64,000 nucleotides of DNA from positions 190,650,001 to 190,714,000 of the forward strand of contig OZ024743.1 in assembly GCA_964016885.1 (NCBI GenBank). Reading direction: 5' to 3'. Origin of the DNA: Eledone cirrhosa (lineage: Eukaryota). Of the stretch, positions 1,575 through 59,304 are shown in pieces. Under the pieces are notes generated by a model, which had not been told where the DNA came from, did no database searches, and worked only from the letters and a program-made list of their open reading frames with translations. Each line of letters begins with the position of its first letter. Position 1 is the first letter of the stretch. The translations under genes were made by a program, and so were the position numbers.

Positions 1575-4272
1575 TCATCATCATCATCATCATCAGGTTT
1601 AGCGTCCGTGTTCCACGCTTGCATGGGTTTGGACGGGGGTTTTCCCACTTGAAGCAAGAGTGGTTGTCTTGCTCGCATAAGACTGTCTGGCGGGTTTTCT
1701 ACAGTTGGATGCCCTTCCTAACACCAACCACATTTACAGTGTGGGGCTGGGAGGTTTTTACCGTGTTGCCTACACGGCCACATTACAGCGTGGACTGTCT
1801 GGCGGGTTTTCTACAGCTGGATGCCCTTCCTAACACCAACCACATTTACAGTGTAGGGCTGGGAGGTTTTTACCGTGTTGCCTACACGGCCACATTTACA
1901 TCGTGGACTGTGTGTTTTTTTGTCGTGACACCTACACGATCTCATTTGTTTCGGCCTGGATGTTGTGGGACCAACATAACTTTACATTGAAAGGGGCCGT
2001 GTGGATGGGGTGGAGGTGGTGGGACGGGGGTGTGTTTTGATAGAGATGCCTACTGACTGTAGTAGGTTTTTACTTTGTATTTAGGTAAGGCGGGTCTTCT
2101 CTATTACTGAGTACCGCCAAAGGTCTCGGTCCAGTGACATTGTCTTGGAGAGGTGTAAGCGTGTGAGGTCGGAATTTATCAGCTCGTCCCATGTTTTTCT
2201 GGGTCTGCCTACTCCGTGGCTACCGTCTATCTTTATTGCCCTGCACTTTGTTATACAGCTGTCGTCTTTCATGCGCATCACGTGACCGTACCAACGTAGC
2301 CTTCTCTCGAGTAAACAACATCTGATCCCTCTTATTTCTAATTTTTCAGTTAGTTCGTTTATGCTTTGCCGTTCACGTATATTACTATTGCACATCCAGC
2401 GGAGCATGCAAGCTTCGTTCCTCTCTAGTCTGCGTATATCCTCTGCACACAATGCCCAGGTCTCACTGCCATGCAGCATTGCTGTTCGTATGCAGGCATC
2501 GTATAACCTGCCTTTCATTTTTAGGGAGAACCCTCTAGCGGCTGATAGTGGTATAAGCTCTCTGAACTTTTTCCATCCAGTTCTGACTCTAGCTACTGTA
2601 CTTTCAGAGCACCCTCCCCCACTGCTGATTTTGTCACCCAGGTAACGGAAGCTGTCCACTATTTCTATAGAACCCTCTGCGCAGTTGAAGGAGCTAGTAT
2701 TTTGTGGGCACTTGCTGCTACTTATTGCACCAGAGCACCGGCCACATGTAAAATCTATGTTCTTAGTTAGCTTACCTGTGATCCCACTACATCTTTTATG
2801 CACCCATACTTCGCATTTGGGACATAAAATGGAGTTTCTACCTACGCCTTTCCTACACACTGAGCATGCCCATTTCCCAGATGGGACCGCCGCCTTATTT
2901 TCTTTCCTACAAACTAGAACTTTAGTCTTAGCCAGGTTAATTTTGATTCTAGGCCGTGCTTCCATGTTTGGAATTTCTTCTCTAGTTCGGTCATTGATTC
3001 AGCTATGAGCGTTAGATCATCTGCGTATAGGAGTTCCCATGGGCAGCCGGTCTTGAACTGCTCTGTTATAGCCTGAAGGGCAATAATAAATAGTAGGGGG
3101 CTAAGAACAGAGCCCTGATGGACACCAACTTTTACGCTAAACTCTTCACTATATTCGTTGTTAATTCTAACCTTACTGACTGTTTCTTTATACATGGCTT
3201 GTATAGCTCTCACAAGCCATTCGTCAACACCTAGTTTTCTAAGAAACCACCAGATAATGGAACGGAGGACTCTGTCGAAGGCTTTCTCCAAGTCGACAAA
3301 AGTTAAGTATAGGGGTTTACTTTTAGCTAGGTACTTCTCCTGTAGTTGTCGTACAATGAAAAGAGCGTCTGTGGTACTTTTGCCTGACACAAACCCGAAC
3401 TGCATTTCATCTAGATCAATTCTCTCTCTGATTAGTTGCGCTATTACTTTTTCCGTGACCTTCATGACCTGGTCGATTAATTTAATGCCTCTATAGTTAC
3501 TCCTATCTAGGGCATCTCCTTTTCCCTTATAGCAGTTAACGATGATGCTGCTACGCCAGTCCTTCGGAACAACCCCATTCTGTACGACTTGGTTAACTAT
3601 CCGGGTGACCATGGTGTGTCCCACCGAACCAGATGCCTTCAGCATCTCAGCAACTATTTCCGAAGGACCAGCCGCCTTACCCGTCTTCATATCTTTGATT
3701 GCCTTGCTTATTGTACTACCCTGGACTAACACTGCTGGTCCCTTTATTGGGTCGATGTGGGGGAGACTGTCTTTCTCCCATTTGTTCTCCTCATTTAGAA
3801 GCCTTTCGTAGTGACACTTCCAAGCTACCTTCTTATCAGCGTCGGTGATGGCAAGTATGCCATCATCGTTAAGTACACACTTCTCCCCGACAATATCACG
3901 GTTTTCCTTGACACATTGCCTGGCAATCCTGAACACCTCACGTTTTTGGTCCTCACGTTGTAGAACATGCTTGAACTTTCTTTCCTCTGCTTCCCTTCTT
4001 GCGAAGTACACTTGTCTCCTAGCTTCCCTCCTGGCCACTTGATAGTCTTCTCTACTTCCCCCATCCCGCCGTACTTTCCAAGCCTGCTTTTTGGCCTTAA
4101 TTGACTCCTCCACCTTACTGTTCCACCACCATGTTACTCTCCTCCTACCTACAGACCTGCTCCAGCCACAGACTTCGTCTGCCGCCGTCAGCAGGTTTGC
4201 TCTCAGGTATTCCCACTGTTCCTCTATATTATACGACTCTAATTGCTCTTCCTTACTGTCGAAAGTGTCAAG

Positions 4273-4275
<3 letters not shown>
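1575..4275 (-). mobile_element. 5'-truncated RTE-clade LINE with (GAT)n tail
   Basis: ORFs 2914-4275 and 2081-2965 (one frameshift) carry RT motifs NYRGIKL, QFGF, FVDLEKAFD, GVHQGSVLSP, LLYADD, FRYLG and the C-terminal RLRWYGHV/GRPRKTW. (GAT)n tail at ~1575-1594; 5' end abuts (TA)n. Confidence 0.93.
1681..1910 (-). repeat. ~112-bp tandem duplication in the RTE 3' region
   Basis: gactgtctggcgggttttctacag.tggatgcccttcctaacaccaaccac occurs at 1681 and 1793. Confidence 0.85.
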
Positions 4276-4327
<52 letters not shown>

Positions 4328-4656
4328 AATATTAGACAGGAAAAAAAACAGAGAGGCAGTACAAATAGTAGTTTATATATATATATATATATAATGCCAA
4401 TCATTGTTAGTTTGAATCTAACTGACATACAGAAACATATATATAGGAATAAGGTAAGCCGAAATCATAGTAGATTCACTAATCACAGAGATGAAGAGAG
4501 ATTGAGAGAGAGAGGGGGGGAGCGAGGGGGGAGAGAGGGAGAGAAATGAGGTGGAACAGAAATAAAACATGGATTACAGGTTAAAATGTATTCTAGATAG
4601 ATGAGAAACAAAACGAGGATGTAATTAATAGAACACCCAAATGATTTAGAAGGAGC

Positions 4657-7693: not shown

Positions 7694-10600
7694 AACCCCA
7701 ACATTTTGGCAAATCAACGCCTGTTTATATGCCTTAGCAACGACAGTGAAGCATTATCTTGGTGATAGCAGAAATATTAACAAGAACAGAACACCACCAA
7801 AAATACCATCATATATAACTAAAATAGAAAAAAAGATTGCTGACCTACGAAAAAACATAGGATATGTGACAATACTCCTTACATGCAAACAAACACAAAA
7901 AACCTCACTCCTCACCAACAAAGAGTGAACAATAAAATAGAGACGATGTTTGGTAATAGTAGAACCATAACTCTCCAATATAAGCTGATCACCCTCAAAC
8001 AAGGATTGAGAGCTGTTAGCGAAAAACGCCGATACCTGAAGAAGGTAGATGAGAGAAAAGTGCTTAATAAAAGATTCAGACGAAACCAAACATCAGTCTA
8101 TAGAGATATGAAGAGCAAAATAATAAGTGTCACTGAGGCCCATCCCAGAAAGCCATAGATTCCTTTTGGAGCAAAATATGGGGTGAAAAGAAGAATTTCA
8201 ACCAAGATGCAGTGTGGCTAAGAGAAATCCGAAAGAACTATTGCTCCTACACTACAAAAAAAACATACGAAATAAGTGAGGGTACACTTGAGACTGTGAT
8301 AGGAAAACTCCAAGATAAGAAAACACCAGGAAGAGAGATGATTGTCGGCTACTGGTACAAAAAACTGATATTCTATCGGAGGTATCTTACTGACCTCTAC
8401 CAACATGTTCTTAAGGGAGATACACTTATACCAGAATGGTTGACATTAGCACAAAGATTACTGGTCCCCAAGAACAAAGACACCCACTTGGCAAAAAACT
8501 ACCGACCCATTGCATGCCAGAACCTGATGTATAAGATGTATACAGCCTGCCTGAACCTATTCCTCCAAGATCACTGTGAAAATAATAACATCATCACAGA
8601 TGAAGAAGCAGCTGGTAAGAAAGGGTTTTAGGTAGGTGCTGAACAACTCCTAATCAACAAAACTGCGATGTCAGAGGTGCGACAACTTAGGAGGAATATG
8701 GCTACAGTCTGGCTGGACTACAGGAAAGATTTCGGTTCTGTTCCCCACTGATGTATGATAGAGGCCTTCCAACTTGCTAAAGTCTCAGACATTATTGTCA
8801 GAGCCATAGAGAAGCTGTCTTCTTCTTGGGCTACTATCCTAAGGTTAAAGACAGAGAGGGAGGATTCTATTTTCACTGATAAAATAAAATATTGCAGGGG
8901 TATATTTCAGGGGGACAGTCTCTCTGTGATATTATTCATATTGTCATTAAACCCCTTGTCCTTTCTGCTCAAGAAATGTGAGGGATACACCATTGGCTCA
9001 CAGAAGGACAGAAATGCGAACTTAACCCATTATTTCTTTGTTGACGATCTGAAACTCTATGCCTAGAACATGGATGGGATGAAGAAAAATCTTGACCTGG
9101 TTACAAAGTTCTCAAAGGATATAGGAATGCAGTTTGGCCAATATAAATGCTCATATATGATTGTAAAGCGGGAAAAAACAACAACCCAATCTAGCAACAT
9201 TGTCATCAATGTCCTAACTGTTTCACCGATATCTGATGAGGACTGCTACCTGGGGATAGATGTGAACATATCCTATAATGATATCTGTAATAAAGAACGC
9301 ATAACCAGGGAATACTACACCCGATTCTGAAAGATCTGGTCATCGGAACTCTCTGCGCAAAACAAAACAGTGGCTCACAATGTGTTTGCTGTGCCTGTCC
9401 TAACACAAACGTTTGGAATACTCAATTGGACGATAGACGAAATCCGAGCAGTTGATGTTGGAACTCGAAAAATACTAAACAACACCGGAAACTTCCACAT
9501 CAACAGTAACATAGACCGCCTTTACTTGAAACGTAAGCAGGGAGGCAGAGGCCTAACATCAGTCCAGACAACATTTGAATGTCGCATCCTATCTCTCCGA
9601 CATCTACGAACCTCGAAGCGTAGGAGCCCGTTTATTGAGAAAGTCTATCTGCATGAAACAGATAAGATCATGAGAGTTGGGAAGGAACTCCTCGAGAGAT
9701 ATTCCCTGTGTGATAATCAAAAACTCACACCCAGGGAAGTCGCTCAGCAGTATCGCAGTGAATCCGTGGATGAAAAACTGCATACTTATCAGCAAAAAAT
9801 CATGCATGGATATGTTGCCAGGAAGCTCCAGAGTGAGAGTAATATAGATAAGGAAAGTAGCCTGTCTTGGACCAACAACCGCTATATTGGCTCCCACTTT
9901 GAAGGATACGCTTTTGCAATCCAAAAACAGGAGATTAACACGAAATACCTGATTCACAAAAGAGATAGGGATGTAGGCAAAACACCTAGATGTGATAACA
10001 AGTGCAGACTCTGCAGAACTAACATCCAGGATACCACCCATGTCATCAGCAGCTGTCCAAAGATGTCATCGCGGTACTATCTACCTATGAGGCATGATGT
10101 AGTGGCCAAAACACTGTACGATGCAGTTCGTAAAAAGGATAGCGCCAATAATAAACACATTAAACGCTCCAGATATGTGGAAGACATCCATGTACATAAT
10201 ATGAAAGAGTACTAGTGGAATGTTCCAGTAAAGCCCCAATAAAATGCAGGCATAACAGACCAGATATTATGATATGGCACAGGGAGTAGAAAGCATTCAC
10301 AGTAGTGGAAATTAGCTACCAAGCAGATGCCAATATAATATCAAAGATTAGTGAAAAGGAGAATATTAATGCAAAACTGATGAGAAATCTGCAGATACTC
10401 CACCCTGATTACACTTTCACATTTATGCCTGTGATTATTGGGGCACTGGGCTATGTTAGTAATTGCCTCAATACAAATCTTGAGAAGCTATGCTTCACAG
10501 GAACAGAAAGAACACAACTAGTTAGGAAATTACAAGTACAATCCATTAATGGAACAGTAAAAATATGTAAAACATTCCAAACATTTTGCATCTGATAACT

Positions 10601-11674: not shown

Positions 11675-11771
<97 letters not shown>

Positions 11772-11869
11772 CGTTGACAAATATATCAATATGCCCAGAC
11801 ATGTAGATATATTGCCCTTGGTATGACAGTGTGGTTTTAGCTCATGTAGGATATCTAGTATACTACAGA

Positions 11870-14665
11870 GCCGTTATAGTTATAGGAATAAACAAAGAGT
11901 GCTTAGAAATACATTGTTTTATTAGCTAACAATGTTTCATCCATACACCATGGCAGGTATCTTCAGAGCCTATAAACATGAGTATATCAGTAGTTGCATG
12001 CTCCATCGAGCTGCGTCACCAGAACGAGGTTAAGTGCACAGCAGGGGGTCTCGAGGCTATATGGAAAAAGACAGAATACATGATGCACATGATGTCATAA
12101 AGTGTCTTAAACATTTTTTAATTAAAAATTCCACCAAAAATGTATCACTTAGATGGTGCAATAGATGATAAAGAGGTTGGGAGAGGGTAGCAAGGGATGA
12201 GTGAGGGTATTACTCAGCATGATCAGAAACAATAAGTAAATAAAAAAAATAATAAAAAAAGTACAAAAATACAGGGATAAGAAAAGAGATAAATACAAAT
12301 ATACAAAACAATAAAGGAACAAAAAGCCCGGAACCCCGCCCCCCAAAAAAACATATATAAGACAAAGCAAAGCATAGATACATCAAAGCACAAGCAGTGC
12401 AAAAAGAGGGTGTACAGGCAGATCAAGAGAGTTTGCAAGCATGAGTCTGTGAAAAGAATTGTTGGTTAGCAGTAATGCAGCCTTACATGTATGATATTCC
12501 ATATGAAGGATGGTGTACTCCAATTATATCGCATTGTAACAGGTCGATTCTCTTCATCATATCCGCACCCTACGAACCACATCGATATGTTCCAGTTCCG
12601 AACGCTAAGGGAGATAACACTATTTTTCCAAAACCTATACCCAGGGGATTTATCACCATAGGCGGTCTGGGATATACACATAAAATCTACAATAAAAAAT
12701 AAAAGAGGGTACGACGAGTTAAAGAAATGTATGGCACATATACAGCCAGCACAGATGTGAGGAAATGGAAAACATTCGGTCACACAATCCAACGTGCCAG
12801 GTGAAATTCACTGTATGTCCAATTGGCGTTCAACCAATGTACATTTTTAAGCGGTGTGTACAGCTTATCGTTTCAGCTCTGCTGTTGATGAGCTCGTGGG
12901 GTGCCGTTATGATGTGGTAGAGCTCCATGAGGCAAAGCTCGCACTTCCTCTTGAAGTTGTACGGTGCAGTCCTGCCGATAATTTCCCAGTGCTGATGTTT
13001 GAGTCTTTTAATGTTGTGATGTAGTTCGCGAGCGAAGTGGAGTCTTAATTTCTTATTTGCGAAAGTGTGGAGATGTGTTCGAAATCTAATTTTGAACGGG
13101 CCAGAGGTAGCCCCTATATAATGTTTAACGCTATTATGGCTAGTGCACCTATATATAACCCTATCAGTCAAGCAGTTTCCCCTAAGGGGGCAGCGTCCAC
13201 GGTAAGGCTATTATTATTGCTATCTACGTTGTTACCTACGCTCCCGCATCTGTCGTTAGCACCATTATAACCTACTGTGCGCGGGGTGGTACCATTATTA
13301 TTTCACACGCAGCAGCGTCTTCCGTTGCCGCTAGGTGACCCCTGCGGTTCACCTGCATATTCTCCAATCATGTCGCCGTTATGTTGGTTGCGTCTGTAGA
13401 GGCTGTTGCCAGCACTATTGGATGCTGCTAGGGAGTCGTTAAGGCCGATATAGTTGTTGTCAGGTGTAGGTGCGTCTTTGCTAAGGTGCTGTGTCTTGGT
13501 GATGATCTTACTGTGATTAGTTGTTCCTATGATGTCTGCTAGGTTAGGAGTAGTAGAGAAGAATATTTTTATATTGTTCCTATTAAGGATGTTCCTATAT
13601 TTATGGTTGGGTGGGAAGTTCTTCTCTAATGCTTCGAAGAATATCCGGCGTATGTCGGAGGCCACACTCCGAGAGTAGGGGGGATGGAACCATAGGACGT
13701 TACGGTGGCGATTACGTGTCTTTGTACGTTTGCTACGGGTTGTGCTATCAGGGTGACTGCTCTTATGTTAATGCGATGTAGCCCGTTACGTGTCCCTTTC
13801 GCTTTATGCTCGGGTGCACTCTTCTTCCTTCTGCTATGTTTATATATAGGAAGTTGTTGGTTGGAAGGAGTTGGTAGTAGGCCGTCGCCTTTGTTGATTT
13901 TATAGTAGGGGAATAATTCAAGTAGGCTACAGTGGTCACCACCACCGGGGTCGCGATCTTTATTGTGTGGTAAACTATCTATACTATCGCCAGTGTAATT
14001 AACATTGTGGCCGTGTTCTTTAGTGCGATTTTCTATACTATTACATCCGACACCTACGAAGTAACCGCGTGATCGGTTATAGGTATGGCTTACTATAACG
14101 TTAGTCTTATGGGGAGGGGGTCTGGAGCTAGCATTAGGGATGTAGGAGATTCCTCGGTTCAAACAGGCGCTTCTCAAGGCCCTATTGCAGTAATCTGCCG
14201 CTTGGTTGAAGATATCCTCATTGGCGGAGAGCCTCGAGATCATATGTGAGATACTATAGACTATGGAGTTGAGAGTCTGCTTAGGGTGGTTGGAGGCATA
14301 ATTAATATAAGAAAGGCTCTCTCCAGGTTTATGGTATGGCTTGTATAGGCCCGTAGTCAATTCCAGGGTCACGTCCAGGAAGCCGACAACCTGGTGGCTG
14401 AGGTCTATAGTTACGGATAGGCCGTATGACTTGAAGAACCTGTGTATGTGCTTGTTAAGGTTCTCTATTCTACGAAGGCTATGGTTCCTAACGGTAAACA
14501 GGGCATCATCCCTATAAACACCTCCTTGTAGGGCCGGTATCTCGTCCCTAAGCTTATGGAGGAGATATATTCCGACCAGGTCGGTTGCTTGCGCTGAGTC
14601 GCTGGACCCCATCGTGATATCGAAGTTATCAGGACGGTTGATTCTGGTCCAGTGGGAGGGAGCCT
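11870..14665 (-). mobile_element. 5'-truncated Penelope-like element (Hydra-type RT with C-terminal GIY-YIG), frameshifted
   Basis: FDITMGSSDSAQATDLVG, GVYRDD, FLDVTL, YINYASNHP, FPPNHKYRNILNRNNIK; CPLRGNCL; VIY..YIGATSGPFKIRFRTHLHTF..WEII..CELC; terminal HHR then AATAAA. Confidence 0.9.
11924..11970 (-). ncRNA. Type I hammerhead ribozyme (minimal) at the PLE 3' end
   Basis: ggct-CTGAAGA-tacc..ggat-GAAA-c att g-TT-agct-AATAAA; stem I ggct/agct; stem II imperfect. Confidence 0.7.
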
Positions 14666-14899
14666 TCGTATATATGTATGTATAGAGGTTAGGTGTATGT
14701 ATGGGTGCTGCTACGTGTGTGAAGATGCAATACATTTTGTGGGTGTGCATTATTTCTTATGTATGTGTATGTATGTGTGCTTTTTTTATCCTTAATGGAA
14801 GAGTGCATGAGAGTATACCTACTTGTGATTCTGTGAAGTTTTTCTATGCGTGTCTATGCCCATGCCTGTCTATAAAATGTTAAGGATTATTGTGTACAT

Positions 14900-21646: not shown

Positions 21647-21924
21647 ACTCTACTCTCTCACAACCACTGTCTCTTTCTCTCTATCTTTCTCTCTCTCTAT
21701 TTATGAAGGTACCCGGAAAAACCCCGTAACTTGGGAACCCATGCTCGATTTATGCGAAACTTGTTTATTTCTTTTGTATTCCCATTTCAGGTGCAACACC
21801 CTGTCAAACTATTTCCCATTTTGTCCCGTTTTGGATGTATTAAATTAGAGACGAGCATACAATCACAGAGTTTTAGCAGTATATAGATAGTTAATGTGAT
21901 TATATATATATGTTTATTAAAATA

Positions 21925-22000
21925 ACAGATTAAACTTTAAGCAAAGAATCGCTGCTTTCACCCTTAACGGGATCTTCTGAAACTAACAAAGTCAATCTGT
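21925..22000 (-). ncRNA. Type I hammerhead ribozyme, CAGAAGA core variant
   Basis: Reverse-complement copy of 24772-24847 with one stem I mismatch. Confidence 0.7.
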
Positions 22001-22793
22001 AAACGCAGAAGTGGATATTTCAAAAAACGTTGCAACCAGAGGAAGACAGGAAGAACTTTGGTTCGTGGAAACGTTCGCTATGCAAATAAGTAAAGGTATA
22101 AACAAAACATATACTTAGCTCCCACATCAAGACGTAAAATATCCACGTATAGATCGTACTATCCGTTAGGGTATAGCGTGGGGCTGTAATACAAGAAAGT
22201 GTTGTGCAATTTATGTTTACAAGCCGAAATTGCCTCAGATTTTTTGTTTAAGATGTGGTCTGTGGCGTAGAGTATTTCCAGGGCCTCAGAGTCGCAGAGG
22301 TCACATGGTCTTTTATTTCCGTTATACGATCTAGCCCTAGCTAGGATCTCCCAGTGTAACTTATATTGGGTGTGGTTGTCTTTTAGACTCCAGATAGAAG
22401 CTGAAAGTGACGTCATATTCCTTCTTAGAGGGTAACGAAAAGAATGGGTATGCATGTAAAGACGCTGCTTGAATCTATTGGCCGTTAACCCTATGTAGGC
22501 CCTACGGGACGTGGGTGTTACAACCTTACATTTGTAGACAATGTTACTAGAGAGGCATTTCCCGGATAGGGGGCAATCAACCCGATTCCTACAATTACAG
22601 TTAGTACTAACTACAGGGTTGCACGTGTTCCTACGGCTAGTTAGTTTAGCTAAATTTGAAGCTGTGATGTTATGTGCAAGGTTAGGAGTCGTAGAGTAAG
22701 AAATTTTAATAGTATTTCTATTAAAAATTTTATTATTTTTGTGTAGGGGGAAAATGCTTCGTAATAAGGGAAAGAAAGATCTTAGCTAATGGT

Positions 22794-24618
22794 GTGGCTA
22801 AGGATTCTAATGCCGTGCACGTCCATTCCGACAAAACTGGCAACCTATATCAAGTGAAGCGCAGTACTTACCATCAACTACTACATAATGCTGTAACTAA
22901 GGATTACCGTAAAACTAATCAGTGCGTCATGAATGAATTCAACGATGCTGGGTTTAAAATCACATCTGATCTCAACATCCTGGACCGGACCGAACCTCTG
23001 GACCCTATTTCTCCCCACTTTACCCTGAAGGATCACAAATCCAATTTTCCGAACAACCCCTCTATTCGGCTTATTAACCCTACGGAGTCCGATTTAGGTA
23101 GATTTAGTAAAACGATACTTGATAGAATTATACCTGTAATTAGAAGTTTGGCCTCTCTTGTACTGTGGAACAATTCCTTCGCGGTGATTGATTGGTTCAA
23201 CGGCATATGTTACAAGGAACATTGCCGTTTTATCCAATTCGACATCAACAATTACTACTCCTCCATCACTTTACCACTTCTCCTTAGAGCTATCAATTTC
23301 GCTAAAACACTCACAGTGGTTAAAAATTTCGAAGTTGATGTCATCCTCATTGCCCGAAAGTCGGTGATTAATTTCGACGACTCTATTTGGATTAAAAAAT
23401 CCAATAGTACCCCATTCGACGTGAGTTTGGGCGCCAGTGATTCTGCGGAGGTTACTGATCTTATCGGCCTTTTCCTTTTTTTCTCTATCAAGGACGAATT
23501 CCCCAACGCGGGCGGTGGTTTTTACCGTGGCGATGGTCTTTTGACCATGACTAAGTGCGGACCTCGTGCTTGCGACAGGTTCAGAAAAGAACTCACAGCC
23601 TTCTTTAAAGGCTTCAACCTCTCTATACAGGTTGAGGCCAATCTCTAGGTCGTTAATTACCTCGACGTTACCCTCAACTTATTGAATGGGTTGTATTACC
23701 CGTATAGAAAGCCGAATGATACGCTTAATTACATAAGTAAGCATTCCAACCATCCTGCCAGCATAACCAAGAACCTGATAAGAAACGTTTCGTTGAGGCT
23801 TTCCCGTGTCTCCAGCAACGAGCGTATTTTCAACGACCATTCCACTTATTACAATGAAGCTCTTGCTCGAAGTGGATTTGTCGATAAGGAAGCATATACA
23901 GAGTACAAAAATAGACCTAGAAGAAATAGATCCCGTCGCATTTGTTGGTATAACCCACCATATAATATGGAGGTGGCCACACCATTAGCTAAGATCTTTC
24001 TTTCCCTTATTACGAAGCATTTTCCCCCTACACATAAATATATTAAAATTTATAATAGAAATAATATTAAAATGTCTTACTCTACGACTCCTAAATTTGC
24101 ACATAACATCACAGCTTCAAATTTAGCTAAACTACCTAGCCGTAGGAACAAGTGCAACCCTGTTGTTAGGTACTAACTGTAATTGTAGGAATCGGGTTGA
24201 TTGCCCCCTATCCGGGAAATGCCTCTCTAGTAACATTGTCTACAAATGTAAGGTTGTAACACCCACGTCCCGTAGGGCCTACATAGGGTTAACCGCCAAT
24301 AGATTCAAGCAGCGTCTTTACATGCATACCCATTCTTTTCGTTACCCTCTAAAAAGGAATATGACGTCACTTTCAGCTTCTATCTGGAGTCTAAAAGACA
24401 ACCACACCCAATATAAGTTACACTGGGAGATCCTAGCTAGGGCTAGATCGTATAACGGAAATAAAAGACCATGTGACCTCTGCGACTCTGAGGCCCTGGA
24501 AATACTCTACGCCACAGACCACATCTTAAACAAAAAATCTGAGGCAATTTCGGCTTGTAAACATAAATTGCACAACACTTTCTTGTATTACAGCCCCACG
24601 CTATACCCTAACGGATAG
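22794..24618 (+). pseudogene. PLE RT-GIY-YIG ORF, 5'-truncated and inactivated
   Basis: IRLINP, FIQFDINNYYSSI, FDVSLGASDSAE, YRGD (expected YRDD), WYNPPY, linker CNCRNRVDCPLSGKC (CxCx5Cx5C), IVY..YIGLT..FKQR..H..SF, W..CDLC. In-frame TAG at 23646-23648. The +1 frameshift near 24170 is absent from the inverted copy. Confidence 0.92.
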
Positions 24619-24771
24619 TACGATCTATACGTGGATATTTTACGTCTTGATGTGGGAGCTAAGTATATGTTTTGTTTATACCTTTACTTATTTGCATAGC
24701 GAACGTTTCCACGAACAAAATATCGTCTTCCTCCGGTTGCAACGTTTTTTTAAATATCCACTTCTGCGTTT

Positions 24772-24847
24772 ACAGATTGACTTTGTTAGTTTCAGAAGAT
24801 CCCGTTAAGGGTGAAAGCAGCGATTCTTTGCTTAAACTTTAATCTGT
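24772..24847 (+). ncRNA. Type I hammerhead ribozyme, CAGAAGA core variant
   Basis: acagattga..agttt-CAGAAGA-t ccc gttaa ggg t-GAAA-gcag cgattct ttgc-TT-aaact ttaatctgt; extended stem I with internal loop; AATAAA follows. Confidence 0.75.
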
Positions 24848-24945
24848 TATTTTAATAAATATTTGCTCTACGGTTCTTATATATTTGATATATATTTATC
24901 CTTATCGAGCCCTCTTTGGATTTTAGTCTTCTAATTTATTATTAT

Positions 24946-24976
<31 letters not shown>

Positions 24977-36629: not shown

Positions 36630-37873
36630 TCATCATCACCGTTTTACGTCCGTTCTTCCACGCTAGCATGGGTTAGACGGGTTGTCCTGTTGTGGGCAGT
36701 GTCTGGTCGGCTGACCATGCCAGGAACTGATCTGGCTTGATTTCTACAGCTGGATGCCCTTCCTAACACCAACCTCATTTACAGTGAGTGCTGGGTGCTT
36801 TTTCGTGGCGTCTACACGTCCACTTTACAGTGTGGGCTGGGTGCTTTTTTGCCGTGGCACCTCCACGACCACCTTGCGGTGGGGGGGGGGGGGCATATTG
36901 TTTATATGCTTCAGCATGTACCCATGGGAGGTCGGGTACCCTGTATTACTGCGTGACGCCAGAAGTCACGGTCGTGTGTCATTGACTTTGAGAGGTGTAG
37001 TTGGGTAAGGTCGGCTTTTATCACCTCATCCCAAGTCATCTTGGGTCTCCCCACTCCGCGGTTTCCATCAACTTCTAGTGCTCTGCACCTTTTTATGCAG
37101 CTGTCATCCTTCATACGCATCACATGTCCATACCAGCGTAACCGCCTCTCCTGCACGCAGCATTTGATTCCTCTTATGCTCAGTCTCTCTCTCAATTCAT
37201 TTATGCTTTGTCGTTCACGTATATTACTGTTACACATCCATCGGAGCATGCAGGCTTCGTTTCTCTCTAATCTACGTAAGTCTTCCACCTTCAGCGCCCA
37301 GGTCTCACTACCATGCAACATCGCTGTTCGGATACACGCATCATACAGTCTGCCTTTCATTCTGAGGGAGAAGCCTTTTGCAGCTAGCAGTGGTAGTAGT
37401 TCCCTAAACTTCTTCCATCCCGTTCTTACCCTAGTTATTGTACTTTCTGAGCACCCACCTCCGTTGCTAATTCGGTCACCTAGGTAGCAGAAGCTGTCTA
37501 CTGTTTCTACAGGGCCCTCCCAGAGATTGGTGGTACTTGTTTCCTGTGGCTGTTTGCTTGCTGTTTCAGCACAGCTGCTGCATGTGAATCCTACATTCTT
37601 AATTAAGCTTCCTGAGATCCCGCTACATCTCTTGTGTACCCATTGTTTGCATTTGGGGCAAAGAATGGAGTTCCTACCTACACCTTTCCTACATACTGAG
37701 CAAGGCCATTTCCCTGAGGGGATCTGGGTTCTGTTTTCTCGTCTACTTATAAGGACCTTAGTCTTTGTCATGTTGACTTTGAGGCCCTTTCTCTCTAGTC
37801 CCTGCTTCCAGGTTTGGAATTTATTCTCTAGTTCTACCATAGATTCAGCTATGAGTGCGAGGTCATCAGCATA

Positions 37874-37874
<1 letters not shown>
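36627..37874 (-). mobile_element. 5'-truncated RTE LINE (from YADD to the 3' tail)
   Basis: YADDLALIAES, PHD-like Cys/His insert, FCYLG, RLRWYGHV; (GAT)n tail; (TA)n on both flanks. Confidence 0.93.
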
Positions 37875-37935
<61 letters not shown>

Positions 37936-38169
37936 TACCGACACAAATCTATTGCGCCAATTGAAATAAAGTGATGAACAAATCTGGTAATGGAAGTTTT
38001 ATATCTTTAAGAAGTAGTATGAGCTGCTGTAAATACAAGAAATTTGTTTCTCAGTTATCTATAGTTTTCTCTTTTCAAGTTATACATAAAAAGCATCTAT
38101 TAATGCATCTAACAGTGTTAACATAGGGATAGGTTCAAAATACCCGAATATCAGCTCTGCTATTTAGTA

Positions 38170-50934: not shown

Positions 50935-53580
50935 GGAATGACAGAGGACGGAGACATCGTTATGCTAGAAGGGGACTTCAATGGTCATGTTTGACAGCTA
51001 CAGGATGGTTACACTGGGGTACATGGTGGGCCCGGTTATGGCTCAAGAAATGAAGGAGTGAGACTTTTTGAATTTTGTGATGCAAGTACACTGATTATTT
51101 GCAACACTAACTTCCAGAAACCTGCCAACCACCTAATAACCTACAAATCTAGCGAGCGCATCAGCCAGATCGACTTCTTACTAGTTAGGCATCGGGACAG
51201 GCAGATAGTGTCTAATACCAAGGTATACACTGGGGAAGAATGTACCCCACAGCATAGGTTAGTCGTTAGTGATATCTCAGTAAACAAGAGATGGAATGAG
51301 ACATACAGGAAGGTGTGGAGAAGAAAGGTCTGGAAGCTAAAAGACCTTTCACTAAAATACAAATTTAGGAAAGCCCTTCAAGATGTGTATGACGAAAAAG
51401 AAGACGATTTAGAGACGTATGACATAGATAATAACTGGAATTTCTTACGTGACAACTTACTGCAGGCTACTGATGAAACTTGTGGCTGGAGCAGAGCTCC
51501 AACCAGACAGAGAGTGACCTGGTGGTGGAACAGCACAGTAGATAAGGCCATTAGAGACAAAATACTAGCATGGAAGGCTTGGAAAAAGGGTGGGAGTAGA
51601 GAATGATATACAGCCACTAAGAGAGAAGCTAGACGTCAGGTGTACTTAGCACGTAGAGAGGCTGAGAGTAGAAGGTTTGCCAATGTTCTGCGACGGGAAG
51701 ATCAGAGGCGTGCGGTGTTCCACATTGCAAGGCAGTGTGTCAATGCAAATCAAGATGTTGTTGGAGATAAATGTGTCCGGAATGATGCCGGTGTACTTAG
51801 TGTCACGAATGATCAGAAAATGGAGGCCTGGAAATGTCATTATGAGAGACTGATGAATGTGGAGAACGAATGTGAGAGAGAGAAATTACCCTCAGTAGAT
51901 CCAACAGAGGGACCAGCTATTGAGATTTACGAATATAGGGTCCAAGAGGCGATTAAGGAAATGAAAAATGGTAAGGCTGCTGGACCATCGGGGATAGTTG
52001 CTGAGATGCTGAATGCATCAGGGGACGTAGGCACTAAACTGGTTGCACGCATCATCAATCAGGCTATATATGGTGGTGTCATACCCAAAGACTGGTGAAG
52101 CAGTATTCTCATAAATTGCTACAAAGGTAAAGGGGATGCTCTGGAGAGGAACAATTATAGGGGTATCAAACTGATGGATCAGGTTATGAAAGTGGCAGAA
52201 AGGATTTTAGCACAACTAATTAGAGAAAGGGTCAGACTAGATGAGATGCAGTTTGGTTTTGTGCCTGGGAAGAGTACAACAGATGCCCTCTTCTTGGTGA
52301 GACAATTACAAGAGAGGTTCTTAGAGAAAAATAAGCCACTATACTTAGCCTTTGTTGACCTAGAGAAGGCCTTTGATAGGGTACCCCAATCTGTCATCTG
52401 GTGGTCCCTAAGGAAACTAGGTGTTGAGGAATGGCTTGTGAGGACAGCGCAAACTTTGTACAGAGGTACTGTTAGTAAAGTCAGGGTAGGAATGGAGTTT
52501 AGTGAGGAATTCCAGATTCAAGTAGGAGTACATCAAGGTTCGGTCCTCAGGCTGCTCTTGTTCATTATAGTCCTCCAAGCGATAACATGGGAACTTCTCT
52601 ATGCTGACGATCTAGTTCTTATAGCAGAATCAGTAGAGGAGCTAGAGAATAAATTCTGGCTATGGAAACAGCAGCTGGAAACTAGAGGACTGAGAGTGAA
52701 CCTAGCTAACACAAAAGTGTTGATGAGTAGAAAAGAGGACAAAACCCTGATTCTGTCAGGGAAATGGCCATGTTCGATATGCAGAAAAGGAACTGGCATA
52801 AATTCTATAAAATGCACACAATGCAGATCCTGGGTACACAAGAGATGTAGCGGGATAGCAGGCAAACTAACAGGTAGGGAGAAATACGTATGCAGTAGAT
52901 GTACAGGGAAATTAGACAGTAGAAGTCGCATTGATAGACACATTTTTCAAATGCAGGCGGGTGCTATAAAAGTGGTGGATAGCTTTCGGTACCTAGGAGA
53001 TCAGATTAGCATGGGAGGGGGTGTTCCGAGGCCATAGTATTTAGAATAAGGACGGGCTGGACGAAGTGTAGGGAGCTGCTTCCTCTGCTGACGAAGAAAA
53101 GAAGGGTCTCTCCCTGCGTACGAAAGGCCGGTAGTATGATGCCTGTGAGAGGAGCGCGATGCTGCATGGAGTGAGACATGGGCAGCAACTGCAGAGAAAT
53201 GAAGCAAGTATGCTCCGTTGGATCTGCAATGTCAATGTGCGTGAACGACCCAGCATGAATGTGTTAAAAGAGAAACTGTGTCTGAGAGGGAGATAATGTA
53301 GTGTGCGAGAGAGGAGACTGAGGTGGTATGGGCATGTGATGCGCATGGAGGATGACCGATGGGTGAAGAAGTGCCAGAAAATGCCAGTTGAAGGAAGACG
53401 TGGTAGATGTAAACCACGAAAAACTTGGGCGGAGATGGTGAGAATAGTCCTCAGATCGCTGAAGCTCACGGTGGAGATGACGAAGGACCGTGACAAGTGG
53501 AGAGATGCTCTGCTGAATAAGACCCTTGCAAGCAGGGAAAAGTGGACGTAAAAGGATGATGATGATGATGATGATGATGA
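50935..53580 (+). mobile_element. 5'-truncated RTE LINE (partial APE endonuclease plus RT), multiple stops
   Basis: GDFNGHV, SQIDFLL, QHRLVV (APE); NYRGIKL, FVDLEKAFD, LLYADD, PHD insert, RLRWYGHV; (GAT)n tail. Confidence 0.93.
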
Positions 53581-53591
53581 TATATATATAT

Positions 53592-53810
53592 ATAGTAATA
53601 ATAATGAATTTGAAGACTAAAATCCAAAGAAGGCTCGATAAGGATAAATATATATCAAATATATAAGAACCGTAGAGCAAATATTATATAATAAAGAATC
53701 GCTACTTTTACCCTTTCATAGAGTTACGCCCCTTTACAGTCTGAGTTTCAGAACATCCCGTTAAGGGTGACAGCAGCGATTCTTTGCTTAAACTTTAATC
53801 TGTTATTTTA

Positions 53811-53816
<6 letters not shown>
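53592..53816. mobile_element. Minimal inverted pair of Hydra-type PLE ends joined by a SINE-derived filler
   Basis: 53592-53715 is the PLE end on -, ~53716-53747 is a SINE piece, 53744-53816 is the PLE end on + with a mutated HHR (CAGAACA, GACA). Confidence 0.8.
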
Positions 53817-53925: not shown

Positions 53926-53958
<33 letters not shown>

Positions 53959-54004
53959 CGTAAAATAAGAAAATTATAAAATTAACTTACTTACTAAAAT
54001 ATCA

Positions 54005-54084
54005 CTTCCAACTAATTAGTTTCTGGTATGGAGTAAATATATTTTCCGAAGAAGACACAGAGAAACATTCCGTCGTCAGGGAAG
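54005..54084 (-). ncRNA. Type I hammerhead ribozyme
   Basis: cttcc-CTGACGA-cggaatg..catacca-GAAA-ctaattag-TT-ggaag; one stem II mismatch. Confidence 0.82.
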
Positions 54085-54512
54085 ACTATTCTCATCTAAG
54101 TATCCAGGCAAAGCGTGGACTCTGGAAACTTATTAAAAAATAATTCAGTGGATAGGAAATAGCAAAGCGTGGACTGAATTCCTAGCCATTGAGAAAATCA
54201 CTGCCTCTGCGTCACTGGCAAATTCAAAAAGAATCAATCACGTGACATCGAGGTCAATCAGTGTAAAGTGGTTTGCTAATAAGACAGCGGCCTGTCTGCT
54301 ACCATAGCAGCAGTCATGGCCAATATTGCTCGACAAATAATTTGGAGATAATTATAAAGAATTAATATCTAGTAACATATATATACATACAGATGCATAT
54401 CAATGCTAGCAAATATATAGGTTTTGTCTTAGTAACTTTGTGGTTGCAGAACAATAATATGAGAGACGTAAAATAAGAAAATTATAAAATTAACTTACTT
54501 ACTAAAATATCA

Positions 54513-54592
54513 CTTCCAACTAATTAGTTTCTGGAATGGAGTAAATATATTTTCCGAAGACGACACAAAGAAACATTCCGTCGTCAGGGAAG
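54513..54592 (-). ncRNA. Type I hammerhead ribozyme
   Basis: cttcc-CTGACGA-c ggaatg..cattcc a-GAAA-ctaattag-TT-ggaag; palindromic stem III. Confidence 0.87.
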
Positions 54593-54785
54593 ACTATTCT
54601 CATCTAAGTATCCAGGCAAAGCGTGGACTCTGGAAACTTATTAAAAAATAATTCAGTGGATAGGATATATATATATATATACATAGTAATAATAATAAAT
54701 TTGAAGACTAAAATCCAAAGACGGCTCGATAAGGATAAATATATATCAAATATATAAGAACCGTAGAGCAAATATTATTAAAATA

Positions 54786-54861
54786 ACAGATTAAAGTTTA
54801 AGCAAAGAATCGCTGCTTTCACCCTTAACGGGATCTTCTGAAACTAACAAAGTCAATCTGT
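54786..54861 (-). ncRNA. Type I hammerhead ribozyme, CAGAAGA variant
   Basis: Reverse complement of 24772-24847. Confidence 0.75.
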
Positions 54862-55759
54862 GAACGCAGAAGCGAATATTTCAAAAAACGTTGCAACCGG
54901 AGGAAGACAGGAAGACGATACTTTGGTTCGTGGAAACGTTCCCTGGCAAAGAACGGGAAAAAACGAATATAATACGTCATTATTTGGAGCGGTAAAAAAC
55001 AATTACACGCAAGGACAAAACTACGTTTATAGTATAAAAGAAGTCGTAGACTAATATTCTCTTAGGTGGTTCAAAGAGACGTTCTCTGGCAACGAATGTA
55101 AAAAACGAAGATAATACGTCATATCTGGAGCGTATAGAACAATTGCACGCAAAGACAAAACCACGTAAATGGTATAACTGAAGTCGTAGACTAAAATTCT
55201 AACTAGGAAACCGAATGATTCTCGGCTTCAGAGTTAAGAATAAAGTAAATAAAATACAGAGGTAATTGAAATTAAATAAACACATACACGCATCCATATT
55301 GTCTACAAATGTAAGGTTGAAACACCCACGTCCCGTAGGGCCTACATAGGGTTAACCGCCAATAGATTCAAGCAGCGTCTTTACATGCATACCCATTCTT
55401 TTCGTTACCCTCTAAGAAGGAATATGACGTCACTTTCAGCTTATATCTGGAGTCTAAAAGACAGCCACACCCAATATAAGTTACACTGGGAGATCCTAAC
55501 TAGGGCTAGATCGTATAACGGAAATAAAAGACCATGTGACCTCTGCGCCGCTGAAGCCCTGGAAATACTCTACGCCACAGACCACATCTTAAACAAAAAA
55601 TCTGAGGCAATTTCGGCTTGTAAACATAAATTGCACAAAACTTTCCTGTATTACAGCCCCACGTTATACCCTACGGATAGTACGATCTATATGCGGATAT
55701 TTTACGTCGATGTGGTGGTTAAGTATATGTTATGTTTATACCATTACTTATTTGCATAG

Positions 55760-56061
55760 GTAAGTATATATTACCTGTATGTTTAATGAAGGTACGTATA
55801 CTTTCTCATACGTATATCTGATTGTATATGTTATGGCGTATATTTTACATATTCTGGTACATATGCTTTTGGTTATGTGTATACGTGAGTTTTGCGTCTG
55901 TGTGAGTATGCGGGTTCGTACGCATGTAGGGTGTGTGTTTATGTGTACTTCGTGTTTTGGTTGAGGTACGTCTCCGAACATTTGTGTATTTACACGTAGG
56001 TATGTGTGTGCGCTTGTTATATACGTATTCATTTATTTATATACGTTTATTTAATTATTTG

Positions 56062-56126
<65 letters not shown>

Positions 56127-56405
56127 ACACACACACATATTCATATGTGCGTGTATTTGTATACCTATGTATGCTTGTGTATGTACGTATATGGATGCGT
56201 GTATGTATTTATTTAATTTCCATTACCTCTGTATTTTATTTACTTTATTTTTAACTCTGAAGCCGAGAATCATTCGATTTCCTAGTTAGAATATTAGTCT
56301 ACGACTTCTTTTATACCATAAACGTGGTTTTGTCCTTGCGTGTAATTGTTTTTCACCGCTCCAAATAATGACGTATTATATTCGTTTTTTCCCGTTCTTT
56401 GCCAG
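55760..56405 (+). other. Spliceosomal GT-AG intron in the PLE pseudo-LTR/UTR
   Basis: catag|GTAAGT..tttttcccgttctttgcCAG|ggaacg; precisely absent at 24699/24700 and at ~22077. Confidence 0.88.
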
Positions 56406-56486
56406 GGAACGTGTCCACGAACCAAAGTATCGTCTTCCTGTCTTCCTCCGGTTGCAACGTTTTTTGAAATATTCACTTCTGCGTTC

Positions 56487-56562
56487 ACAGATTGACTTTG
56501 TTAGTTTCAGAAGATCTCGTTAAGGGTGAAAGCAGCGATTCTTTGCTTAAACTTTAATCTGT
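56487..56562 (+). ncRNA. Type I hammerhead ribozyme, CAGAAGA variant
   Basis: agttt-CAGAAGA-t ctc gttaa ggg t-GAAA-gcag..ttgc-TT-aaact. Confidence 0.72.
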
Positions 56563-56587
56563 TATTTTAATAAATATATATATGCAC

Positions 56588-56784: not shown

Positions 56785-56975
56785 TGCCAGGGGATTGGCA
56801 GTATTGGTAGAAAGTCGACGCCATGCTTTTTATCATAGAGTTACGCCCCTTTACAGTCTGAGTTCAAATCCGGCCAAGGTTTACTTTGTCTTTCATCCTC
56901 AAGGGGTTGATAAAATAAAGTAACAGTAATGTACTGGGTAATTGCTGGCCTTGTGTCGAAAATAAAAACGATGAT
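56785..56975 (+). mobile_element. tRNA-derived SINE family A, within inverted-duplication segment B' (56720-57030)
   Basis: Family motifs; both flanks also match 61955-62256 in reverse complement. Confidence 0.88.
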
Positions 56976-57039: not shown

Positions 57040-58740
57040 TAAGAATTAAAACACTTGAGTGTGTTGGAGTTAAACACCCTCTTCATATTATAGAAATGAC
57101 AGTAAAGGTATAGCTCAATGTAATTAAACAGTCTTTTGGCTACCATACTATATCTTTCTTCTTAAATATTATATTTTCACTATTAACACCTTATGAGTTT
57201 ATATCTGATTATATATTTTATTTTATTTTATTTTATATTATTTTATTTTATTTTATTTTATTTGGATTCTCATTTAGATAATTAACCCCCTCCCCCCCCC
57301 CCCCACACACTTGTCATTCGCCCCTTCAATTATACTATAATTATATTCAATTCCCTTTTATGCCCCTTTCTATTGTATAATACACTATATTGATTATAAT
57401 TTTATGCTCCTTCGCATCCTCCATACATTTCTTTTTTCTGTCCCCATTGGCCTACCATAGTTCTATTTAAAGTCTGTTTATTGGATAACGTTATTCAACT
57501 GATAGTAAAGTATTTCATTCTATTCTGGATGTTCTTATTGAGATATCTTAGACTTTGGAGATTTTGATTACTTAAACCATAGCTAATTTTGTATTGACTT
57601 ATTATGTATTTTGGATACTTTCAATATTAATTTATTTAATAGGGTTTTTTAGTCATTTATCCGGGTTTGATTCCTAATTTTTTTACTTGTGACACCTAAG
57701 TAAATATACTTGTTTTTGTTTCTCGATTTCTGGTTGATTCTATTTTACTTATATTTAAATTTTTTTACTACTGTGCGTAGTTTCTGTCTGGTTCTTATTC
57801 ACTTATTCACATATGTCTGTCTACCAACCATGTAATTATGTATATTATACTATGTTCATTATTTGATATTGATGTACCCTTATGTTAAATTTTGTAAATT
57901 CTGTAATATGTTTATATTTTTATAATTTTTGTAATGTTTAGATAATACTTATTTATACCAATTGTATAAAAACTTGACCTCCGTCTGTTTTCTTACAACG
58001 GTATAGATATTTTTTCCAGCACAATCTTTTCAACACAATTTAGTTCTGTATGATATTTTTTCTCACCCCCTGTGTGTAACTTTATATGATTTGTTAAGTT
58101 ATATGCCAATATATTATAATATTGTTATTATAGTGTTATTGTAATATTTATACTGTTTGTGAAAATTGACCGGATTTTATTAATTATATATTTATATAGT
58201 ATATTATATTTTATATGTTTACTTTTACTCATTTCTTTATCATTTTATACTGTAAATAATATATGTATTATTTTTATTTTTATTTAAACTCTTAATAGGT
58301 GTTAGTTTGGGTTTGTATAGATGGATATGTGTATTGATATATATATATGTATATGTATATGTGTACATATGTATATGTATATGTATGTTTATTGGGCCTT
58401 TTAATATTATTATCATTATCAATTATATTATATTATATTATATTTAGCACCGTAATTCTCCCTTTATATCACCACTTGTGTTTAGCTTTAGTTTTTGCAT
58501 TGTACTATATTTGTAATATGGTTCAAAATGTTATTCACTTCCTTAGCAATTTTTACTTGATAATTTTCCTATGCTTTAATGTATGTATACTCCATATTCT
58601 TCTGAGTTTTGGGCTTGTATTGGCCGATAGTGCTTCTTATAGCTTTACTTGCCCTGATGAGTACTTAATAGGACGAAACATTGTTGGCTAATAAAGACTT
58701 TTGATGTATTGAAGGCTTCTTTGGTTTATTTCTTAATATA
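57040..58740 (+). mobile_element. Long T-rich PLE-type 3' region ending in an HHR
   Basis: Terminal ~90 nt resemble the 3' end of the PLE at ~11880-11970; (TA)n flanks; absent from the right arm of the inverted duplication. Confidence 0.6.
58651..58688 (+). ncRNA. Minimal type I hammerhead ribozyme
   Basis: gcc-CTGATGA-gtac ttaata ggac-GAAA-c att g-TT-ggc t AATAAA; stem I extends via cttta/taaag. Confidence 0.8.
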
Positions 58741-59304
58741 TATATATATACTATATTATATTTTGAGAATAAACTCTCAGTCGTTTATAATAATCAAGCT
58801 CCAAGAAAAGGGGCATTTCAAAATATAATATAGTATATTGCTCCTTAACTGTAGAGCTGATCTTTAATCCCGCATAAACGGCTGTTATTTCTAGCACCGG
58901 GAATGCGAGACGGCTAGTTTGGCCTGGCTACACACGTGTAGTCAGACCTGCAAAATTTGTGATGTGAGATGTACTAATTTTACTGGATTCCTGTTGATAA
59001 GCACAGAAGATTTGGATATTTCACTTTTTATTTCAATTCCATTTCGATTCTCTTTATTTTTCAATTCACATACCACCGTTGCGAAACGGATTTAGGTTTC
59101 GAGGTTCAAATTCGTCTACAGAACAGGTTTGGATTTTGAAATTTAAATCTGTCCAGGAATCATGGCCGTTGCCAATATAAGCTTGTCTTTATTGACTTAT
59201 ATCGAGACAGACAAATTGTATTCACTTTAATTAGTTTATTTCATTAATAGCTAACTTTGTCTGTTGCAATGCAAACACATTTTGTGTTTATCATATATTT
59301 TAAT

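Follow-up and report, generated by a model that had tools for sequence, protein, structure and literature searches.

A putative, non-coding hammerhead retrozyme family with PLE-type insertions in the genome of Eledone cirrhosa

The stretch of Eledone cirrhosa DNA that we analysed, a window of 64,000 nucleotides, carries at 53951–54665 one copy of a dispersed family that is, by the sequence-level definition, a putative non-LTR retrozyme and that behaves in its insertions as a non-autonomous parasite of Penelope-like elements (PLEs). Judged from the sequences, we lean towards a cycle in which the reverse transcriptase (RT) and endonuclease of a PLE copy the family in trans from an RNA circle that has cut itself out and been re-ligated. 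The retrozyme class and its link to PLEs have already been published (PMC7229834; 10.64898/2026.07.22.740005), and the movement of animal retrozymes by PLEs, like the circular origin of PLE tandems, has been proposed since 2014–2020, resting on co-occurrence and homology. The present family is young, free of protein-coding sequence and 522 nt in size; its PLE insertion signature is unusually clear, it is small enough for synthesis, and it could be put directly into the in vitro PLE assay that already exists.

The window copy and its ribozymes

The features discussed below are as follows.

11700–14756, minus strand: PLE-B, a second PLE family, whose RT and GIY-YIG frames are broken and whose 3' region is long
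21904–24951, plus strand: PLE-A copy with a broken RT and GIY-YIG ORF, inverted, one of its ends being short and the other long (context only)
53926–53952, no strand: (TA)n target at the 3' end of the element
53951–54665, minus strand: retrozyme insertion with a single arm 1.4 units long, made up of a 5'-truncated piece (148 nt), one full unit and a 3' end of 59 nt
53996–54092, minus strand: type I hammerhead, the downstream one of the two, predicted to cut at 54010/54009 and with a private mismatch, A.A, at 54027 in helix II
54010–54517, minus strand: unit between the two predicted cut sites, 508 nt, without ORF
54235–54246, plus strand: CAATCACGTGAC, an E-box-like motif with a putative promoter role
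54353–54459, minus strand: "tail" between the family's two fixed 3'-end sites, 104 nt in the window copy, with a conserved hairpin inside
54504–54600, minus strand: type I hammerhead, the upstream one of the two, predicted to cut at 54518/54517 and with all 6 bp of helix II intact
54666–54682, no strand: (TA)n target at the 5' end of the element
54685–56573, no strand: inverted insertion of PLE-A, an autonomous PLE family; a separate neighbour, long end left and short end right

An earlier note on this DNA had described a 508-nt non-coding monomer, bracketed by two hammerheads within direct repeats, in a (TA)n setting. The layout bears this description out. Direct repeats at 53949–54161 and 54457–54669 are 98% identical, with 3 substitutions in 207 nt and a start-to-start spacing of 508; a (TA)n tract occupies 53926–53952 and resumes from 54666; the longest ATG ORF on either strand encodes 27 aa; and the E-box-like motif is present at 54235–54246, its CACGTG being conserved in 10 of 11 aligned units. 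The length of 508 nt is correct for the window copy but not as a family size, the norm being 522 nt and the difference a 14-nt deletion at about 54445. Each 207-bp repeat consists of 148 nt upstream and 59 nt downstream of a cut site. The repeats arise where a partial tandem of 1.4 units overlaps itself and are not terminal repeats; a true LTR organisation is absent. The 3' end of the insertion is the family's "short" end. The 508-nt unit is predicted to fold more stably than its shuffles (z −4.06, and −5.8 when folded as a circle).

Two type I hammerheads were found on the minus strand exactly where they had been proposed, 508 nt apart and with predicted cuts at 54518/54517 and 54010/54009. 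Both copies read CUUCC-CUGACGA ... GAAA-CUAAUUAG-U-U^GGAAG. After the 5' strand of helix I (CUUCC) comes the core CUGACGA; helix II (GGAAUG...CAUUCC) has one extra base on either side, C before it and A after it, and then follow GAAA, helix III (ACUAAUUAGU), U17 and GGAAG. Helix III is palindromic, as the note had remarked, and is predicted to form a duplex of −9.0 kcal/mol and no stable hairpin alone. Helix II is long, its 6 bp being extended by a 35-nt insert; in a constrained fold this insert bears a cUUCGg hairpin in loop 2, and helix I continues for 6 bp beyond an internal loop. The unpaired bases after A9 and before G12 are C and A in 198 of 202 hammerheads, and the CAUACC haplotype that gives the downstream window hammerhead its A.A mismatch at 54027 occurs in one of the 202. 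In isolated fragments the active fold is predicted to lie about 5 kcal/mol above the minimum free energy (MFE).

A strict hammerhead pattern gave 720 exact matches in the genome and none for its reversed control, so the window hammerheads are not chance occurrences. Neither of them was found by an Rfam scan at E ≤ 1, probably owing to the long loop 2. No plus-strand CUGANGA..GAAA core and no Rfam ribozyme was detected in 53951–54665, and a viroid-like RNA replicon was rejected as an identity for this segment, its ribozymes being of one polarity only.

Stem covariation, a check that the note had recommended, is evident as compensatory helix changes. In an alignment-free count over the 202 hammerheads, helix II appears as several fully paired haplotypes (pair 2: G-C 145, U-A 30, A-U 22, C-G 1; pair 5: U-A 163, G-C 35), and helix I also covaries, with both sides changing. 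At ten well-aligned pairs we counted 15 double-sided changes against 4.1 in shuffles, and none of 500 shuffles reached 15; the count comes from 23 hand-picked hammerheads in which 97.8% of cells pair, and their relatedness inflates the figure. Outside the ribozyme, hairpins of the unit likewise show compensatory changes, at 12 of 102 predicted pairs. The ribozyme fold thus appears to be under selection, and the covariation supports the fold through which the putative self-cleavage would act.

Only 15–16 of 60 loci (sampled as described below) hold two complete tandem ribozymes, which places the window copy in the minority from which a monomer could be released. Nevertheless, its second ribozyme is mutated and the region with the E-box, found upstream of the first ribozyme in 10 of the 60 loci, is missing there, so the copy is doubtful as a source; it is more likely an end product. 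Read-through transcription from the co-oriented PLE-A arm upstream would be possible. The retrozyme reading of the note is supported by the evidence from the family as a whole.

The family and the marks of its insertions

Genome-wide counts of copies and multimers, another check that had been called for, revealed thousands of dispersed copies and arrays of up to 10 cut sites. In a genome of 3.0 Gb, the exact 20-mer from +1 to +20 past the cut has 1,914 matches and the cut-site motif 3,206, with none for either reversed control. A DNA search returned 1,825 candidates, 40 of them scored, and a second subfamily (B) gave 2,741. The copies lie on many chromosomes, have a GC content below 50% and are organised in tandem, every unit having its own type I hammerhead; the usual length of a full unit is 522 nt (37 of 84). 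Greedy clustering of 40 units separated at least six subfamilies at 78–89% identity, which keep the unit size and the core and whose representatives measure 478–529 nt. Four monomers, each compared with 25 shuffles, are predicted to be 59–61% paired, with circular z scores of −4.8 to −7.0.

Insertion anatomy was read from 60 loci on one contig (C1), obtained from 71 clusters among the first 100 matches listed, leaving out two clusters and the last nine; all 60 were chosen for one intact hammerhead. Inverted two-arm insertions make up 37 of them and single-arm insertions 23, with a mean arm of about 490 nt. Whereas 5' ends are spread across the unit as by random truncation, with a mild excess near the loop-2 hairpin and none at the cut, 3' ends fall at two fixed sites, approximately +59–61 or +177–181 past the cut site. 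In 32 of the 37 inverted loci one arm ends at the short and the other at the long site (p = 5e-10 for 32/32); no locus pairs short with short or long with long, and in the other five one end is non-standard. Of the 60 loci, 48 have (TA)n on either side, and the longer TA runs within the unit (+113, +147) never serve as ends. Subfamily B ends mostly near +55–60 and +180.

These family-wide marks ((TA)n targets, truncated 5' ends, inversion of arms and 3' ends at two fixed sites) support the mobilisation by PLEs that the note had suggested. According to Craig 2021, PLE insertions show 5' truncation, partial tandems, inversion and a 30–40 bp tail, often at one end only (PMC8557442). Frangieh 2024 explains the PLE tail as the distance between two internal RT starts, and reports cutting and extension on both strands of the target, by a protein predicted to be a dimer (PMC11167929). 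Following that interpretation, we infer that the tail of the window copy at 54353–54459, which in the 522-nt unit runs from +59 to about +177 and measures 118 nt, is bounded by a pair of RT start sites.

The likeness to endonuclease-bearing PLEs extends, in what is described of them, to 5' truncation, partial tandems, an inverted 5' copy, a tail at one end, a (TA)n bias and a hammerhead just upstream of the 3' end (PMC8557442, PMC11167929, PMC4209133). The hammerhead itself matches the PLE type in its long helix II, the extra base after A9 and the palindromic helix III (PMC4209133). In contrast to those elements, the present family has no ORF and a tail of 118 nt rather than 30–40 bp (PMC8557442), and the strict pairing of one short with one long end (32/37, none alike) is a count made here.

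Like the metazoan non-LTR retrozymes (Cervera & de la Pena 2020, PMC7229834), the family consists of AT-rich, non-coding units in tandem, each bearing a single type I hammerhead; both occur as dimers up to multimers and in thousands of copies, have a structured monomer and are proposed to be mobilised by PLEs. It differs from them in size (170–400 nt among those tested there, 478–540 nt here), in a hammerhead of PLE build where theirs is of the canonical loop-loop type, and in the predominance of partially tandem loci whose inverted arms sit in (TA)n; there circles were demonstrated, and here they are proposed. Li, Clavereau and Pollet (2026) reached the same conclusion on class for vertebrate retrozymes as non-autonomous PLE derivatives, with consensus lengths of 51–972 bp that include the present size, in a sample of 31 vertebrates, 3 insects and 1 coral (10.64898/2026.07.22.740005). 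Their case is built on co-occurrence and pseudo-LTR homology; ours rests on insertion geometry, a homologous PLE not having been found. In the literature searched on octopus and cephalopod hammerhead or Penelope sequences no such family is described; supplements, Repbase and Dfam, outside the scope of that search, may hold it. One squid paper (among PMC13282606, PMC6962438) gives, in the text available, only 235 "hammerhead 1" matches.

Partner element and RNA template

PLE-A, with 64,799 candidates and open frames above 700 aa, is the neighbouring family that the note invoked as mobiliser. Its insertion beside the window copy retains a GIY-YIG fragment (55280–55759), and the family has the same target and a comparable two-end pattern, at about +25 and +115. 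Geometry and target agree, but no sequence is common to PLE-A and the unit, so this part of the claim is not established. Comparison of the unit with PLE-A and PLE-B loci revealed no similarity beyond TA low complexity, and other PLE families were met as fragments only. Protein searches returned no name for a PLE clade.

The copies could be merely the 5'-truncated pseudo-LTR ends of an autonomous PLE yet to be found, a reading to which we give little credence. The PLE build of the hammerhead (PMC4209133) and the end marks, all of them PLE marks, would fit it, and the flanks were covered for 1.5–2 kb with proteins of two PLE families as queries. Yet no RT and GIY-YIG ORF was found inside the repeat unit, and in 140 loci screened with those proteins no copy was seen to run into an RT ORF of its own. 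The sole adjacent endonuclease ORF, at L096, was rejected as an autonomous form: 40 scored sister copies identify it as a nested insertion. Arms run instead into further units, with up to 10 cut sites in a row and never an ORF; the 5' flanks of the 23 single-arm loci have no common sequence abutting the element; and a relaxed hammerhead pattern, used in looking for the partner, yielded 56 matches that are nearly all relatives of the same non-coding unit (sister subfamilies). Another repeat common to L034 and L081 was discarded as a clue to the partner, lying at different distances in the two. Even less probable, and largely refuted, is a satellite whose hammerhead is incidental and whose spread is due to recombination at the DNA level or to a DNA transposon. 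Head-to-tail arrays do occur and unit number does change, but such a satellite would not account for fixed 3' ends with random 5' ends, inverted pairs of short and long arms, dispersal over many chromosomes or covarying ribozyme helices.

One insertion normally derives from one template. At 17 sites that split the subfamilies, tandem units disagreed in 27 of 998 comparisons and opposite arms in 31 of 755, as against 86,206 of 219,928 (39%) between different loci; the inverted locus L002, whose arms are unlike at several diagnostic sites, is an exception. Reverse transcription runs through the cut site, with 87, 21, 5 and 1 of 92 arms crossing one, two, three and four cut sites, respectively. 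Both U's before the cut are absent in only five of the 1,914 matches to +1..+20, so the cut linear monomer is not the usual template. Two of the five are true ends at the cut; the other three go back to a single duplicated insertion that has lost the ribozyme, making three independent events where 1.6 are expected without a stop. An excess of 5' ends near the cut site, apparent at first, was not upheld at the precise position across the genome. The junction data are compatible both with a ligated circle and with a multimer left uncut.

We favour the circle, already proposed as a PLE template in 2014 (Cervera 2014, PMC4209133), as it would better explain how tandems regenerate under constant truncation, why haplotypes are reset and why the ribozyme is conserved. 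A tandem locus would be transcribed, adjacent hammerheads would pair through the palindromic helix III and excise a unit, and a host ligase (RtcB-type in other animals) would close it. The PLE protein would nick both (TA)n strands and start cDNA at +59 on one and at +177 on the other; each cDNA would extend back over the junction until falling off, and the two would join head to head, or a single one would be kept as in the window. Several points count against this cycle. A dead hammerhead made no difference to RNA insertion by a purified PLE, and in that report reads did not end at the cut site (PMC11167929); PLE-type hammerheads cleaved poorly in vitro (PMC4209133), and eight of nine Xenopus retrozyme dimers were described as giving no cleavage (10.64898/2026.07.22.740005). 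The MFE gap, the unlike arms of L002 and the missing partner PLE weigh in the same direction, as do changes of unit number at the DNA level: L144, L145 and L146, duplicates of one insertion, differ in unit count, and a long array has two units with shared variants.

The same parasite might instead use an uncut multimeric linear transcript, the hammerhead being slow, protein-dependent or active at another step and long arrays growing mainly by unequal exchange of DNA; we consider this possible, if doubtful. RT always passes the cut site, PAc used unprocessed RNA in vitro (PMC11167929), the duplicates L144–L146 have unlike unit counts, and 10 of the 60 loci are long enough to be multimeric sources. 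On the other hand, with random 5' truncation and so few two-ribozyme loci, a purely linear lineage would shrink unless units were regenerated. Moreover, units within one insertion are reset to one haplotype, no pile-up of 5' ends marks a start site, and the helices covary over six subfamilies, so the fold matters.

Variation in loop 2 and other observations

Unit positions 472–474, in loop 2 (in the window, for example, 54561–54568), vary within the locus in 9/62, 17/61 and 15/62 loci, compared with 2.2% overall. The rate is independent of age (15 of 31 younger and 19 of 32 older loci; rho 0.13, p 0.33), and the positions differ between opposite arms reading the same ribozyme in 8 of 69 cases versus 30 of 2,093. 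Together, the age-independent rate and the inter-arm differences suggest errors made at the time of insertion. The 11 copies in L141 lack this variation, and subfamily B, in the few loci available, is variable at other loop positions. CpG decay is not favoured as the cause: other CpGs lie mostly outside the top discordant sites, and transversions occur.

We tentatively extend the circle reading to these data, while doubting that the extension is right. A two-headed PLE reaction would use the retrozyme circle directly as its template, a single protein dimer priming both nicked target strands at two fixed positions of one circular RNA, separated by 118 nt, and the loop-2 hot spot would be the trace of misreading by RT where the RNA is structured or modified. 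If true, PLE tails, inversions and partial tandems would be explained together.

Arm junctions cluster at about 477–480, at the cUUCGg hairpin. L141 (G000:C5:11372000-11381500) is an array of 10 plus-strand cut sites with an inverted arm, its units 0–4 differences apart and two of them with shared variants. Neighbouring units of 523 and 518 nt in L015 (1126–2166) are 2.1% apart, possibly reflecting a switch between templates. In L144, L145 and L146, near 1392–1563, an 80-nt deletion that stops precisely at the cut site removes the whole ribozyme; DNA-like contigs show the same skip of 80 nt.

Most of 28 PLE-A loci (L149–L176) contain a putative hammerhead-like fold with CAGAAGA replacing CUGANGA and a 3-bp helix III, located in the window at 24805–24834 (+), 54799–54838 (−) and 56510–56549 (+). 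A tiny inverted PLE-A insertion at 53595–53815, long end left and short end right, has at its junction 32 nt identical to 56833–56864, part of a different repeat, possibly by template capture. Another PLE-like 3' end at 57040–58780 (+) carries a canonical hammerhead at 58638–58708, with a weak Rfam match to HH9 (E 0.17); the remaining Rfam matches are microsatellite artefacts. Further hammerhead-like cores lie at 8036 (+), 11966 (−), 25081 (+) and 26055 (−). Broken LINE copies in which Pfam places a PHD finger after the RT occupy 50995–53581 (+), 2081–4464 (−) and 36911–37948 (−), the first of them terminating in (GAT)n.
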